Both the position numbers and the translations under genes were made by a program. 64,000 nucleotides of DNA from an uncultured Nitrososphaerota archaeon (GTDB lineage: Archaea > Thermoproteota > Nitrososphaeria > Nitrososphaerales > Gagatemarchaeaceae), in assembly GCA_963718895.1 (NCBI GenBank), contig CAVRAG010000007.1, forward strand, positions 544,001 through 608,000, written 5' to 3'. The notes beneath the pieces were generated by a model. The model made no database searches. It was given only the letters and a program-made list of their open reading frames with translations, and was not told where the DNA came from. Of the stretch, positions 2,401-7,327 are shown in pieces (the stretch's first letter is position 1; each line of letters opens with the position of its first letter).

Positions 2401-3540
2401 TCACGCCACGGCGCCGGCCCTGCGTAGACGCTCTATCTGTTGAGGTCCGTAGCCGAGCCGGCGCAGGACAGGATTCGTGTGCTCCCCTAGCGAAGGCGAG
2501 CCTCTCTCGGTCCCTGCGGAGGCGAAGCGGAGAGGCTGGTTCACCACCGGCGTGCCGCCCAGCTTCGTCACGGCCCCGGTCTCCCTAGCCCACTCCGAGT
2601 CCAGCGCCTCGCCGATGTTCAGAACGGGCGTGACGCAGGTCTCCACCCCCATCAGGAGTTCCGACCAGACCTCCTGGGTCCTGGAAGCAAAGACCCTCCT
2701 CATCTCCCTTGCCAGCCTAGACCGGTCGCGCTCTGTCCCGTCTCGCAGGTGTGCGAGGCGAGAGAGACCGAGAGCGCGCATCAGGTTCTCCCAGAAGCGG
2801 GGCTCGACGGCAGCGACCGCCAGATACTTCCGGTCGGCCGTCTGATAGATTCTGTAGTAGGGCTCGGAGCCGAAGACCATTCCCTTCCCGCGCAGAGCGG
2901 ACTCCCCCGTCGCGAAGTACGACGAGGCAGGGAGGATGAGCAGCGACATCAGCGACTGGACCATGGGCACGTCGATGTACTCCGCCCTCCTGTCCCTACC
3001 CTTCTGGAGGACCGCCAGAATCCCCAGCGCCGCGTACATCCCCGAAACATAGTCCCCAAGTTGAACGAACGGGACCTCGGGCCTTCTCGCCGAGCCCAGC
3101 AGTCCGCTCATGGCCTCGATGTTCAGGTCGTGGGCGGGCATGGAGCTCAGAGGGGACGTGTGGCCGAAGGACGAGATGGAACAGTAGACGATCCTCCTAT
3201 TGAGCTTCCTCACCTCTTCAAAGGAGAAGCCCAGCCTCTCCGCGGCCCCGGGCCGAAAGCCCTCCAAGAAGACGTCGGAGCGCCTGATGAGCCTCCGGAG
3301 GACCTCCTTGCCTTCCTTCTTCTTCAGGTCGATCCCGACGCTCAGTTTACCACTGTTCACCACGGTGTTGGCGAGACTGGAGCCGTCGACGAGGGGTGGT
3401 AGGTCGCGCATGTAGTCACCGAGTCCGGGCTCTTCGACTTTCACGACCTCGGCTCCGTAGGAAGAGAGCAGATGAGTGCAGAATCCGCCCGGAAGGAGCC
3501 GGGTTATGTCGAGGACTTTGATTCCCTTCAGGGGAAGCAT
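2401..3540 (-). CDS. family III CoA-transferase (CaiB/BaiF, AMACR-like)
   Basis: LKGIKVLD, GAEVVKVE, FRPG, HDLN and C-terminal PSLGEHT motifs. Confidence 0.92.
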   Translation of the reverse strand: MLPLKGIKVLDITRLLPGGFCTHLLSSYGAEVVKVEEPGLGDYMRDLPPLVDGSSLANTVVNSGKLSVGIDLKKKEGKEVLRRLIRRSDVFLEGFRPGAAERLGFSFEEVRKLNRRIVYCSISSFGHTSPLSSMPAHDLNIEAMSGLLGSARRPEVPFVQLGDYVSGMYAALGILAVLQKGRDRRAEYIDVPMVQSLMSLLILPASSYFATGESALRGKGMVFGSEPYYRIYQTADRKYLAVAAVEPRFWENLMRALGLSRLAHLRDGTERDRSRLAREMRRVFASRTQEVWSELLMGVETCVTPVLNIGEALDSEWARETGAVTKLGGTPVVNQPLRFASAGTERGSPSLGEHTNPVLRRLGYGPQQIERLRRAGAVA

Positions 3541-3660
3541 GGCGGGGGGGCCGCTGCGCCGCGCATAAAACCTAAAAGAAGCGAATAAGCGGTCTCAGAA
3601 GACGATGAGGTTTACGCCGTCCCAGTCTGATCCCGGGATAGCTCCATGGGAAAATGATGA

Positions 3661-3680
3661 ACTCGCGACGATACTGAGTC
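3661..3680. repeat. direct repeat copy 1: ACTCGC-GA-CGATACTGAGTC
   Basis: 12-bp exact core at 3669-3680 is identical to 5139-5150, plus a shared ACTCGC. Confidence 0.85.
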
Positions 3681-3840
3681 GTTCTGATAACTCCGGAGGG
3701 AGGCTCGTGTCTCCCTCCGAGTTAGCTTCGAGGCATCGACTCTAAGGATTAGGGGCTCTCCCACACTAGCCACATTCCCCTTCATTGCTTCAACTGCCCC
3801 GCCTTTCGCCTCCTCAGGCAGGGAACGGTCGAACGTCAAC
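3661..3840 (-). ncRNA. predicted TnpB omegaRNA (scaffold overlapping the tnpB 3' end, plus guide at about 3661-3680)
   Basis: Long hairpin TAACTC-GGAGGGAG..CTCCCTCC-G-GAGTTA at 3688-3724, followed by TCAGAAC; omegaRNAs are known to overlap tnpB 3' ends. The 5' boundary is a guess. Confidence 0.55.
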
Positions 3841-5128
3841 CGCCCCCTCCGAGCTTGATTCACTGCCGCCACCACATCTCGGTCCCTCCATCTCTTGCAT
3901 CCAGGACACCACAGCCGTCTGTGTCTCTCTCTGCTATCTTGGAGTCTCTCCCCGCATCGATAGCAAGTTGTTGACGTACCCCTTGTCTCCCCCTTGGTCA
4001 GGTGGATAATGGGCACTCCATCCCATGCAGCCTTGTATTCTATCTGCCTCTGCGCTTCGCGAAAGGTCCATGAATTCATTCTGCGCCTGTGTGTCACCCC
4101 TTGCCGATTGCCACGTCTGTACAGCGCCCGAATACCGGTGATATTTTCCAGAACGATGGCCTCTCCATTGGCATGTGCCTCATTGACTATGAATCTGGTC
4201 GCACAATGGAGGAGGTGGTTGATTCTGTTCCTTCTGCGAGTACCGTACTTGGAGGCAATTGCCTTCAACACTCGCGGTCGTTCCGCTTGAACGATCCGAC
4301 TACTTCCCCAGTTGTTTCTGCTATCTCCACCGCCTTTCCAAGATCAAGATGGACAACCCTCTCTCCATTGCCGTAGGTTAGGTTGCGCAGATTTCTATCC
4401 AGGCCTGATGTGGTCTTGAAGTCCATCGGTTCCACAACTTTCGAGAAAGTTATGCTTACTGCGTGCTCCGTAAGCGTGAAAGATCGAATCCTCGAATCTA
4501 GGCTTGACAGCATTTCTTGAGTGTGAGCATCGAGTTCGATGACATATCGTTCCCTTTTTCGAATCGGTATCTTCAGCATTCCATTCTCTACGGAGAAACC
4601 GTAACAAGACGTGACCATCAGCCTAAGAGCGTAAGGGTCTCTTGTCCTAATGCCTCTCCTAATCGACTTCTTCCTCGATGACAGTATTCCAGCAGCTCTT
4701 GATATCGCACAGAGCTTGTAATAGGATAGGCAGTCATATCGCCCAAGGGCTTTGTAGCTCAGCCTAGAGAGTCTCCTAAGGGTAGAAGCATCGTTAGCAA
4801 GTCCAATTCTGATGCAGTCGTTGGTCATGCACCTGAACGTCTCGAGCAAAGGAAGGAGTTCTTTCGGTAGATCGCATCGTTGTTTGACCGATTTCATTGC
4901 CACCAAAGGCAGAGAACACTTGACTTTCGAATCGGCGGGTGCAGATGAGGACCTGTGCTCTCCTCTAATCGGTGGGTCGCACGAGCCGCCTGCAAGAGTT
5001 GGAAAGGAGGTAGGCTCTGGGAGTCGCTTGCCCGTTTCGGAGCACCGAGTCCTTGGCTCGCGGGCGTCGTTCATGGATAGTGATAATTGCAATCAATAAA
5101 AGGACAGCGGAGTCGATTTTGATCTGCG

Positions 5129-5150
5129 ACTCGCTTTTCGATACTGAGTC
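5129..5150. repeat. direct repeat copy 2: ACTCGC-TTTT-CGATACTGAGTC (candidate TnpB target)
   Basis: 12-bp exact match to 3669-3680; abuts AATAAA at 5151-5156. Confidence 0.85.
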
Positions 5151-5187
5151 AATAAAGTATTCAAGAGGCCCCTGGGAAACACCAGGG

Positions 5188-5376
5188 ATGCTCGTAATCA
5201 AAAGTGTGAAGGTCCACGGCGATACCCACAAGGTCCTCAAGCTGATCAAGGAACAGAGGCGGGCCAAGAGCATGGACGAGGTCGTCAGGGACCTGGTCAG
5301 GGGTGCCACGGGCAAGAGCGTCGAGCAGTTCGCGTCGCAGAAGAAGAACTCGAAGCTCACGTCCTTCATAGAGTAG
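5188..5376 (+). CDS. small ribbon-helix-helix / VapB-like DNA-binding protein
   Basis: MLVIKSVKVHGDTHKVLKLIKEQRRAKSMDEVVRDLV has the beta-strand plus two-helix pattern (KSVKV...SMDEVV); codon usage is host-like from 5188. Confidence 0.65.
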   Translation: MLVIKSVKVHGDTHKVLKLIKEQRRAKSMDEVVRDLVRGATGKSVEQFASQKKNSKLTSFIE

Positions 5377-5419
5377 CGACGCAAGACAGAAATATCAAGT
5401 TGGGAGAGTGTCCAACTCG

Positions 5420-5566
5420 ATGGCCAAGTTCGACGGCATAGTCGAGAAGAGGCTCCTCACGGTGACGGAGAAGGAGAACGAGTTGACGCTGGTCTTTGAG
5501 GACAACAGGTACCTCTTCCTCTCACTGAAGGACGGAAAGCTTCACTCCGAGAGTGTCCCGGAGTAA
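5420..5566 (+). CDS. 48-aa hypothetical protein (below the ORF-track cutoff)
   Basis: MAKFDGIVEKRLLTVTEKENELTLVFEDNRYLFLSLKDGKLHSESVPE; host-like codon usage and an AT-rich box about 25 nt upstream. Confidence 0.7.
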   Translation: MAKFDGIVEKRLLTVTEKENELTLVFEDNRYLFLSLKDGKLHSESVPE

Positions 5567-5645
5567 GCCTCGCTGTCCGCGCGGCAGGGCTCCGCGAGAT
5601 GACTCTTAGGCACTGAGGTTCCTCTTGCAGGCGGGCGAGTCGGAC

Positions 5646-6245
5646 CTAGACTTCCGCTTCGTCTTCCTTGATCCCGGACTTGTCGATGGTGAGTATGTCG
5701 ATGCCGTTCCCGCTCATCGAGTCCCTTGCGATCGCCGCCCTAATCGAGGTGATCAGAAGCTCCTTTGCATCTTTGTAGGAGAGTGACGGAGCGAAGCCGC
5801 CCTCGATGACACCCACGGCCATCTCTGCGCCCGTCCCGACCGCTGCATAGTCGTCGGCGATTACGCTCCCGAGCGGGTCCAGGACCCAGACCTTGGGCTT
5901 TACGTCGATCCCGCCCAGGATGACCTGGGTGATGAACGGGGCGTACCGCTGCTCGAACATTATGACTGACATCAGCTTCGCCACCGCCCCCGGCCTCAGA
6001 GTCCTCTTGACCTCGAGCTCCTTCAGCTTTGTGTAGACTCCTACCTGACGTACGAGGTTCTGCATGTCGCCCACCATCCCGGCGCAGACGGCTCCCGTGC
6101 TGTCGGTGACCTTGAAGACCTTCCGTCCAGACTTGCTGAGCACGTAGTTGGCGAGCGTTATCCTCCTCTCCGCACCGAGCACTACCCCGTCCTTGTAGGT
6201 GATTCCAACCGCGGTGGCGCCGGGGATGTAAGCATCGAATGACAA
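5646..6245 (-). CDS. psmB: proteasome beta subunit (likely non-catalytic paralogue)
   Basis: PGATAVGITYKDGVVLGAERR, LDPLGS and RDSMSGNGID; Ala where the catalytic Thr1 is expected. Confidence 0.9.
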   Translation of the reverse strand: MSFDAYIPGATAVGITYKDGVVLGAERRITLANYVLSKSGRKVFKVTDSTGAVCAGMVGDMQNLVRQVGVYTKLKELEVKRTLRPGAVAKLMSVIMFEQRYAPFITQVILGGIDVKPKVWVLDPLGSVIADDYAAVGTGAEMAVGVIEGGFAPSLSYKDAKELLITSIRAAIARDSMSGNGIDILTIDKSGIKEDEAEV

Positions 6246-6280
6246 TTAAACGACCGAGATAAGCCGCCGTCGGCACCTTA

Positions 6281-7327
6281 TTAGCTATTTTGCTCGTTCG
6301 GCCTGATCGACAGAATCCAGGCGGGTCCTGAGGGCTCGACCGAGTAATCCACCTTCATGAACTGTTGCGCTACGTGGAGGCTCGTCCTGAGGTGTTCGGT
6401 GACCTCCGGCGTCACCAGCGAGGACGGGCCCTTGGCGAGGCAGAGGAGCGGGGCCAGCATGTCGGCTAGGTGTGGGTCGACGCAGGCACCGGTGGTGAAG
6501 AACTTTCCGAATCTCCACGCCGCCTCAGACCCCACTCTCAGAGCTGGTTTCCCCCGGGCCCCGATCGAGTCCGCTCCGACGAAGCACGAGTCGTCGACCG
6601 CGCTGACGAGAATCGAACTCCCCGGCGAGAGTGATTCCTCCAGACGGACGTCGACCGTATCCGCCGACAGGCCGAAGCGACCCAGCTCCGAGACCGCCGC
6701 AGACACCTGCTGCTCGGGCACCCGCTTCGGCAGCATGCCGGCTCTGCTGACCAGGGAGATGGGAGGGTCTTTCGTCCTTGTCGGCAGGTCCAGGGGCACG
6801 ACCCCGCGGCACGGTTCTATGCGAATCACCGCCCTGCCGCCTCCGCTCGGGTAGTACCCCCTCTTTGAGACCTCCAGCGAGAAGGTGATTCCGATCTGTC
6901 TCAGGCTCGGCGACAGCACGGTGCTGACGTAGTCCGAGGTCGGGCTCCAGGGAACATCCGTACCTCCGATGAGCTCGAGCTCGAGTCCGACCCCGGAGAG
7001 CGAGATGGCTGGGATCAGCGCCTGGAGTACGAGCGTGACGCTTGCCGCCGTCCCCATGTCGAGGGTGAGGGACCTGTTCTCGGGTCGGCCGGGTGTGAAG
7101 GTGAACTCGGTGGACCCTATCCCCCCGCCCTGGAGTGTCCCTCCGCAGACCTTGCGGAGTATCTCGAGTGTCGCGGCGTGCTGCGGCCTCAGGCCCGGCA
7201 CTCTTCGCCCGGCCCTGACCTTGGTCACCCGGATTGGTCTATCGAGGATTATCGAGAAGAACGTCGCCGTTCGAACAGTCTGTCCGCCGCCCTCGCCGAA
7301 CGAACCATCGATCTCAAGGACCGTCAA
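6281..7327 (-). CDS. rtcA: RNA 3'-terminal phosphate cyclase
   Basis: IDGSFGEGGGQ, GLRPQH, GGTDV, RGYYPSGGG and DPHLADM; likely TTG start at 7327. Confidence 0.93.
   Translation of the reverse strand: MTVLEIDGSFGEGGGQTVRTATFFSIILDRPIRVTKVRAGRRVPGLRPQHAATLEILRKVCGGTLQGGGIGSTEFTFTPGRPENRSLTLDMGTAASVTLVLQALIPAISLSGVGLELELIGGTDVPWSPTSDYVSTVLSPSLRQIGITFSLEVSKRGYYPSGGGRAVIRIEPCRGVVPLDLPTRTKDPPISLVSRAGMLPKRVPEQQVSAAVSELGRFGLSADTVDVRLEESLSPGSSILVSAVDDSCFVGADSIGARGKPALRVGSEAAWRFGKFFTTGACVDPHLADMLAPLLCLAKGPSSLVTPEVTEHLRTSLHVAQQFMKVDYSVEPSGPAWILSIRPNEQNS

Follow-up and report, generated by a model that had tools for sequence, protein, structure and literature searches.

Insertion sequences (IS) of the IS200/IS605 family have by definition neither terminal inverted repeats nor target duplication, according to the passages devoted to them in two accounts (PMC13565253, PMC3119063). 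In the corresponding parts of one of these accounts, TTAC, TTTAA and TTGAT are given as target-adjacent motifs (TAM) or target motifs, and prokaryotic TnpB is described as occurring with the DDE transposases of ISL2, IS630 and IS1031; IS6 is not named in that passage (PMC13565253). Elements of the IS26 family are described, at the level of the abstracts, as moving by copy-in. RNA-guided repressors such as TldR, the tracr-L of Streptococcus pyogenes and the scaRNA of Francisella depend on a short seed match beside a flank that resembles a TAM or a protospacer-adjacent motif (PAM), near a promoter; short seed matches of the tracr-L and scaRNA type can bind without cutting. The window analyzed here is a stretch of 64,000 nucleotides from an uncultured Nitrososphaerota archaeon (contig CAVRAG010000007.1, positions 544,001 to 608,000) that contains a tnpB gene and, at its 3′ end, a putative guide RNA (omega-RNA). 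The original prediction for this locus was that the guide matches the promoter region upstream of its own gene, a candidate case of RNA-guided autoregulation. Most probably, the two matching 12-mers are instead the direct repeat that flanks an insertion at the 3′ end of a small RNA (sRNA) gene, the inserted element being a member of a family with IS6-type ends and 8-bp target duplications.

On the minus strand, the 12-mer GACTCAGTATCG (3680-3669) stands directly after TCAGAAC (3687-3681), which is preceded by a GC-rich hairpin (about 3724-3689), and is followed by TC (3668-3667) and GCGAGT (3666-3661). The upstream copy reads, on the same strand, TTTATT (5156-5151), GACTCAGTATCG (5150-5139), AAAA (5138-5135) and GCGAGT (5134-5129). 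The perfect 12-nt match between guide and upstream region, with GCGAGT after an indel, was therefore present as claimed when the strand was read again. The copy at the right end (3661..3680, minus strand) is the guide region of the omega-RNA, with the guide GACTCAGTATCGTCGCGAGT, and consists of target DNA continuous with the sRNA gene; the copy at the left end (5129..5150, minus strand) contains, as its 12-mer, the last bases of the left flank found in empty alleles. Within the 3,127,762-base assembly the 12-mer is confined to these two sites, both strands counted, so that the match is not due to chance; by our arithmetic, a same-strand 12-mer match within 1.5 kb has a chance of about 1e-4.

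The region from 2900 to 6300 of the window was searched for an empty locus against 61 related genomes. At this locus, seven congeners (G001, G011, G010, G007, G015, G004, and G013) lack the 1,458-bp insert and have the 12-mer once. In all seven, the match of the left flank stops at window position 5139 and that of the right flank begins at 3680, the two overlapping by exactly 12 nt. The single-copy sequence ...TT-GACTCAGTATCGTCGCGAGTTCATCAT... is present in 11 of the 19 loci scanned, and in two more loci with rearranged contexts (G005 and G002). An insertion of 1,458 bp (5138-3681) is thus present in the window between the two copies of a 12-nt direct repeat of its target, and the guide matches the upstream region because this insertion duplicated the target, of which the empty alleles hold a single copy. 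A 1.46-kb module flanked by a target-site-like duplication had been the fallback of the original prediction, and the comparison with empty alleles proposed there upholds it. Both junctions are bridged, with 0 differences, by Logan contigs of run X1, which may be the source sample rather than an independent one.

Judged from its sequence, the gene in the window is a TnpB. It is split into an N-terminal frame with the RuvC-I motif GLDRN (4265..4897 (5092), minus strand), interrupted by a frameshift near 4277, and a C-terminal frame with RuvC-II, zinc ribbon and RuvC-III (3612..4271, minus strand). The C-terminal frame matches PF07282 (TNB/zinc-ribbon) with 52.5 bits, the Pfam cut-off being 26.3, and a search of the PDB revealed similarity to the ISDra2 TnpB structures 8bf8/8exa (E 2.6e-6). 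The RuvC-type motifs GLDRN, LENITG and DRDVVAAVN, and with them the three acidic residues previously claimed, are present and are conserved in two paralogues. DRDVVAAVN corresponds in the alignment to DRD..NAA.N of TnpB-type nucleases with solved structures, this third motif being the only one that the PDB alignment covers; the N-terminal part of the protein had no PDB match. In place of one uninterrupted frame the window shows two, and this copy has TAT where the right end normally contains a TGA stop, so that the frame runs 23 codons into the flank and into the sRNA gene. In one Logan contig of run X3 (depth 2.6), an additional base follows 4276 and would bring the two frames together, and there is a 1-nt gap at 3989; the Logan contigs of run X1 do not cover the frameshift site, and no contig of any run joins across the insert. 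The frame break could reflect a true frameshift, a polymorphism or a mistake of the assembly.

The right end, with the putative omega-RNA scaffold (3681..3852, minus strand), overlaps the 3′ end of tnpB. An nhmmer profile built from 31 relatives matches 3852-3681 and stops at CAGAAC (E 2.3e-28), and the fold z-score of this segment is -3.29. When 32 related omega-RNA 3′ ends were aligned, position +1 was C in 29 of them and conservation was gone from +2; CAGAAC itself is invariant in this alignment because the search pattern demanded it. The right end in the window has no such terminal C. Profile and alignment agree in placing the boundary at CAGAAC, and the claim that the match begins at the guide position holds. 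These features point to a conserved omega-RNA scaffold at the tnpB 3′ end, with a guide taken from the element boundary onward. The source genome contains two further tnpB paralogues, about 50% identical to the window gene, and six more scaffold-like remnants; all of them end in (A/C)CAGAAC and then diverge. One paralogue (C8:545288-546456, minus strand) is likewise split in two, its frame breaking near residue 113, and the other (C7:139670-140700) has a 504-aa open frame. The collection of genome contigs searched contained no close relative of the window tnpB, and the best relative among metagenome contigs is 54% identical over the N-terminal part. The exact element of the window is a singleton among the sequences searched, and its left end therefore cannot be defined from copies. 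The earlier observation that no tnpA is adjacent to the element is correct, and the Pfam family Y1_Tnp (PF01797) was not found anywhere in the source assembly, which is 80.5% complete.

The ends of the wider family are better defined. A pattern for omega-RNA ends gave 42 matches in the 23 genomes of the genus, whose assemblies are 54-96% complete. Thirty-five of them were kept as omega-RNA ends; the seven dropped matches are coding look-alikes without NNNAAG after GTCGATGCC and all vanish under a stricter pattern. Two of the 35 ends, at contig starts, were omitted, and among the 33 analyzed 17 have a terminal inverted repeat (18-26 nt), 14 have none by a strict criterion, and two are too short. 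For the 17 elements with inverted repeats, the 8 nt before the left end were compared with the 8 nt beyond the right end, counting from the base that follows the terminal C: they agree at 8/8 positions in seven elements, at 7/8 in three and at 6/8 in three. Thus, 13 of the 17 match at 6/8 or better, a level reached by 0 of the 272 non-cognate pairings. Flank repeats at the expected distance were also observed in copies without a strict inverted repeat, namely L047, L060 and L061 (8 nt), L053 (7 nt), L065 (10 nt), and L050 (19 nt). Beyond the genus, two of 11 ends in other genera show an inverted repeat together with an 8/8 or 7/8 duplication (L117 and L120), and in the metagenomic relative L037 an inverted repeat occurs with the 8/8 duplication CTTGTGAC. 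Near-full-length elements of the family measure 1,305-1,378 nt. The left-end consensus of the family is GGCTCTGTCAAGTCTTCG, and the right repeat doubles as the last omega-RNA segment, ending in ...GACAGAACC. In 14 of 20 insertions, a TT is found no more than 4 nt 5′ of the repeat, the genome background being 10.4%. It is important to note that the duplicated 8 nt differs at every site in typical members. As to the proposed check, whether guide-promoter matching recurs and co-varies in other copies, recurrence and co-variation are both seen, but they arise because the elements make 8-bp target duplications and not from conserved targeting of a promoter.

The TGA that ends tnpB is, in most copies, part of the terminal inverted repeat (TTGACAGAACC), and a single short sequence would consequently act as stop codon, as the omega-RNA 3′ terminus and as the presumed transposase site. 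Within the source genome, four elements measuring about 250 nt (C4:191799-192054, C8:385684-385939, C8:574167-574415, and C8:877640-877894) consist of the left and right ends only, including the omega-RNA 3′ scaffold but without tnpB, as orphan guide-RNA modules; three of them have 8/8 or 7/8 duplications.

The resemblance of these ends to an IS6-family insertion sequence can be followed in the source genome and in a congener. The source genome carries a complete 794-bp element of this family (C1:30554-31347, that is, L069 1210-2003) with perfect 18-nt inverted repeats GGCGCTGTCAAGTTAAGG, flanked by the 8-bp duplication GTCGCTCA and encoding a DDE_Tnp_IS240 transposase of 221 aa (L069 1279-1944; 29 bits, cut-off 27). 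Its homologue in G002 has the inverted repeat GGCTCTGTCAAGTTAAGG and the duplication GCGCGGGC. The left-end consensus of the tnpB family is identical to the G002 repeat in the first 13 nt (14/18 overall) and to the repeat of the source genome in 12 of the first 13 nt (13/18 overall). Both the match to the IS6 repeat and the 8-bp duplication are characters of the family and are missing from the window copy, whose repeat measures 12 nt. In other genomes, a regular expression recovered inverted repeats and duplication at two of the seven IS6 loci examined. From the similarity of the ends and the length of the duplication, we infer that an IS6-family DDE transposase moves the tnpB-family elements in trans. 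No paper that connects TnpB with IS6-family ends came up in a literature search with partial coverage of subscription papers. In this archaeal lineage the tnpB family departs from the IS200/IS605 plan, its inverted repeats being like those of IS6 and its insertions having target duplications. The characters of the IS200/IS605 mobility type are thus not seen: no Y1 HUH TnpA was found in the source assembly (80.5% complete), the family has inverted repeats and duplications, and the window copy has a 12-nt flanking repeat.

Several observations weigh against this interpretation of the family and of the window copy as one of its members. Fourteen of the 33 ends have no inverted repeat by the strict criterion, four of the 17 elements with one have no duplication (3/8 or less), and in other genera the combined pattern is limited to the two ends in 11 mentioned above. 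The score of the IS6 transposase is barely above the Pfam cut-off. A clear IS6-type transposase (E < 1e-10) is found in only six of the 23 genomes of the genus, the omega-RNA-end pattern being found in 15 of them, or in 10 if the seven dropped matches are left out of the count; in G021 and G003, several tnpB copies occur without any IS6-transposase match. End similarity and duplication length are, moreover, the two observations on which mobilization in trans is founded. As for the window copy, its repeat is 12 nt long where perfect and about 20 nt with the indel (TC versus AAAA), roughly a guide length and not the 8 nt that are the norm in the family; no inverted repeat of the family type adjoins it. 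The three ends nearest to it, which end in ATCAGAAC (L112-L114), have neither inverted repeat nor flanking repeat. The probable inner part of the original left-end inverted repeat (4956..5000, minus strand), which matches the reverse complement of the hairpin region of the right end, gives only a modest score of 34, the shuffle mean being 23.8 (standard deviation 3.7) and 34 being reached by 15 of 1000 shuffles.

The target of the insertion is a conserved gene for a C/D-box-like sRNA (about 3604..3680, plus strand), delimited in an alignment of 14 genomes. Conserved in these genomes are a terminal stem GAC...GTC, a box C-like CGATGAGG, the segment ACGCCGTCCCAG, an internal hairpin with compensatory changes, a box C′ ATGATGA, a 13-nt guide ACTCGCGACGATA and a box D CTGA; box D′ is variable. 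The conservation stops exactly at the last C of GTC, where the right end of the element starts. The 12-mer is the 3′ end of this sRNA, and the last 20 nt of the sRNA are the reverse complement of the tnpB guide region. The assignment is a motif-level call and the gene a candidate C/D-box sRNA: its box C departs from RUGAUGA at one position, an Rfam scan of the window gave nothing at gathering score, and the Rfam match for the sRNA, SNORD31, was below threshold (22 bits, 40 needed), with weak snoRNA-like matches on the plus strand at 3591-3650. For the sRNA guide, a search of the source genome gave scattered one-mismatch matches only, none in identified rRNA, and pointed to no rRNA or tRNA target. 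The spacer between D′ and C′ is unusually long and forms a hairpin. At least the last 20 nt of the sRNA would have an antisense partner in the tnpB guide and in any omega-RNA transcript that reads through.

On the other side of the insertion, TTTATT on the minus strand, or AATAAA on the plus strand (5151..5156), is present in the empty alleles, hence ancestral, and forms the T-rich 5′ flank of the target. AATAAA sits 29-34 nt before the ATG of a divergent small open reading frame (ORF), of which it is, from this spacing, the likely TATA box. The ORF (5185..5376, plus strand, 63 aa) is conserved and syntenic in relatives. It had been labeled as a ribbon-helix-helix (RHH) gene, a label without support, since no Pfam family matches at E <= 0.01 and the best one, DUF7889, has E 0.072. 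The spacer between this ORF and the sRNA gene is a hot spot of rearrangement (L042/L044 in G005, L043 in G002): in G005 its two sides lie on different contigs beside unrelated DNA, and G002 has 119 extra nt there.

Taken together, the insertion consists of a 129-nt stretch and the tnpB/omega-RNA element, and it landed exactly at the 3′ end of the sRNA gene and beside the AATAAA of the divergent ORF. An omega-RNA guide is whatever DNA follows the right end. Since that is so, an insertion that duplicates its target places the first bases of the guide, together with the original 5′ flank, upstream of the left end. The match between guide and upstream region is then most probably a structural by-product and not an evolved operator. 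In the family at large, an IS6-family DDE transposase may act in trans on the element ends, and TnpB may cut unoccupied alleles, in which the T-rich flank, the duplicated 8 nt and the downstream flank are contiguous, so that repair copies the element in.

The window copy is an atypical, decayed member of the family, with no left tip, no terminal C and a frameshifted tnpB. Its left-end candidate (5000-4956) is placed as in relatives, at 1,320 nt from the right end, and the outermost 9 nt or so of the family-type tip are not recognizable. Between the repeat and this left end is the 129-nt stretch (5010..5138, minus strand), which holds the second promoter-like box TTTTATTG (5102-5095, minus strand) and an in-frame ATG at 5074. 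Apart from chance-level matches of 17-40 nt, no similar DNA was found in 96 other genomes of the family (E <= 0.1), and there is no exact 25-mer match in the genome contigs searched. Two origins for this stretch were considered and ruled out: a remnant of a right end, as the sole profile match is the real right end, and a decayed copy of the sRNA, as 588 of 1000 shuffles score equally. L115, the nearest relative at the DNA level (66% identity over tnpB), has in common with the window a CTCCGCTG...TTTTAT motif whose alignment score is reached by 44 of 500 shuffles; the motif was not found in L112-L114. Other features of the minus strand at 5020-5150 are the presence of GACTC or GAGTC five times within about 130 nt and a short hairpin formed by GCGAGTCG...CGACTCCGC; CCAGAGCC, at 5019-5012 (minus strand), is the reverse complement of the family tip GGCTCTGG.

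A layout like that of the window copy is shown by L050 (G003:C106). There, a 19-nt repeat in a tRNA-Val gene abuts the right end, and the 80 nt between the upstream repeat and the left end comprise the rest of an intron-less tRNA plus 47 nt. The native, intron-bearing tRNA-Val follows the right end from position 26 onward, and a full intron-less copy lies upstream. A search for an empty allele of L050 revealed in G021 a different insert of about 710 nt in tRNA-Val, with a 44-nt 5′ repeat (L082, G021:C1:211400-212900). The tRNA-Val(CAC) of the genus has a 24-nt insert after the anticodon stem, which can be read as intron-like or as a long variable region. From the features of the window copy, we infer that it arrived by non-canonical break repair or by short-homology recombination and not by transposase cutting at both tips.

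One version of such an arrival would make the long repeat the product of a circular or junction-bearing intermediate that carried a sequence of about 20 nt resembling the end of the sRNA and entered by a single crossover within 12 identical bases. As a crossover predicts, the two copies diverge past the 12-mer (AAAA-GCGAGT-CGCAG on the left, TC-GCGAGT-TCATC on the right); the repeat begins at the first base after the right end, and extra DNA lies between repeat and left end. The architecture of L050 at tRNA-Val is a match, and re-entry by homology has an analogue in the translocatable units of the IS26 type. However, no donor of the 129-nt stretch was found among the genomes searched, no circle was seen, and the stretch has no similarity to the sRNA beyond 20 nt. 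Twelve nucleotides are, in addition, very short for homologous recombination, and a de novo duplication of about 20 bp followed by one indel in the dispensable copy would fit equally well. We regard the crossover as a doubtful, if serious, candidate.

The nuclease itself might have driven the insertion. Here, a TnpB cut at TAM plus target in an unoccupied allele, or a cut with a guide read from a junction, would start the repair or recombination that copies the element in, and imperfect resolution would leave a repeat of 12-20 nt from target position 1. The full target upstream would then need an escape indel, which in the window would be the change of TC to AAAA at positions 13-14. Such an event, which we judge unlikely, would mean that an IS6-type element spreads into RNA genes under RNA guidance and independently of a transposase, the two cases seen being the sRNA gene here and the tRNA-Val gene in L050.

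Autoregulation was the headline of the original prediction: the TnpB-omega-RNA complex would bind TTTATT and the 12-nt seed (5156-5139) without cutting and repress either tnpB, through the TTTTATTG box, or the divergent ORF. The site does have a T-rich 5′ flank, as 14 of 20 family insertions do, and its 12 seed-proximal positions all match before an indel interrupts the pairing; it shares bases with the likely TATA box of the small ORF, the RuvC motifs are present, and a population variant may have an intact tnpB frame. Nonetheless, target duplication accounts for the whole match, and the upstream copy and TTTATT are ancestral, occurring in empty alleles instead of being borne by the element. 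The repeats of typical family members are just 8 nt long and differ at each site, which leaves no conserved promoter target, and the window tnpB is frameshifted. A TldR-like repressor would show guide-promoter pairing conserved across homologues irrespective of insertion history; the pairing found is site-specific and equals the target duplication. Autoregulation is therefore very unlikely at this locus, though the TnpB-omega-RNA complex may bind TTTATT and the 12 nt incidentally. An insertion of the canonical IS200/IS605 peel-and-paste kind, made 3′ of TTTATT by a Y1 TnpA working in trans, the left end being similar to the target by chance, is hardly tenable, for even if tnpB-only (IS1341-type) elements are normally assigned to IS200/IS605 and the T-rich 5′ flank is like the known TAM and target motifs, no Y1_Tnp was found in the source assembly, a chance identity of 12 + 6 nt has a probability of about 1e-4 or less by our arithmetic, and the relatives show inverted instead of direct end similarity and 8-bp duplications, both excluded by the family definition as the passages cited give it (PMC13565253, PMC3119063).

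With insertion and target duplication as the preferred explanation, a match between a guide and a promoter should not be read as regulation, as any TnpB insertion that duplicates its target yields such matches; scans for self-targeting omega-RNA guides need prior subtraction of flanking duplications. An archaeal TnpB/omega-RNA family appears to use IS6-type ends, and in it a single sequence would serve both as the presumed transposase-binding inverted repeat and as the 3′ end of the guide-RNA scaffold. If an IS6-type transposase moves the family, movement would be copy-in and no donor site would be emptied by excision; re-cutting of such a site, the reason usually given for TnpB, would then not apply. 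In that case, non-restorative homing into empty alleles in polyploid archaea would be a natural role for the nuclease. This makes testable a question raised in the part of a review that deals with the matter, namely, which types of transposon profit from an OMEGA nuclease (PMC13565253). The IS6-type architecture of a TnpB family and the guide-length repeats at RNA genes both merit follow-up.

Compared with known systems, the family is like the IS200/IS605 TnpB elements (ISDra2, IS608, and the IS1341 group) in its TNB/zinc-ribbon and RuvC domains, in a scaffold overlapping both the right end and the 3′ end of tnpB, in a guide that is the DNA flanking the right end, and in a T-rich 5′ flank of the target. 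Unlike them, it has no Y1 TnpA that could be found in the source assembly, and its ends are inverted repeats with 8-bp duplications. IS6/IS26 and its non-autonomous derivatives are similar in other respects: the inverted repeats of the family start with GG, their first 13 nt are those of the G002 IS6 repeat, the duplications are of 8 bp, and short, gene-less, two-end forms of about 250 nt occur. The cargo differs from that of IS6/IS26, since it is tnpB plus omega-RNA without a transposase, and the right repeat doubles as the end of the guide RNA; the window copy departs further, lacking both tips and having a 12-nt repeat. With the TnpB of ISL2, IS630 and IS1031 and with eukaryotic Fanzor transposons bounded by terminal inverted repeats, the family shares an RNA-guided nuclease enclosed by inverted repeats and duplications, the duplication lying at the boundary between TAM and guide. 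In the ISL2, IS630 and IS1031 cases, unlike here, the transposase is reported in the same element, as far as the passage on these elements goes (PMC13565253). TldR, tracr-L and scaRNA differ from the window copy in that its nuclease motifs are intact, its target is not conserved among homologues, and its match is explained by duplication. Finally, as in tRNA-targeting integrative elements with their att repeats, a direct repeat derives from the end of an RNA gene that is left intact on one side (the sRNA gene here, tRNA-Val in L050), whereas the 1.46-kb insert carries no integrase and its repeat is just 12-20 nt long.

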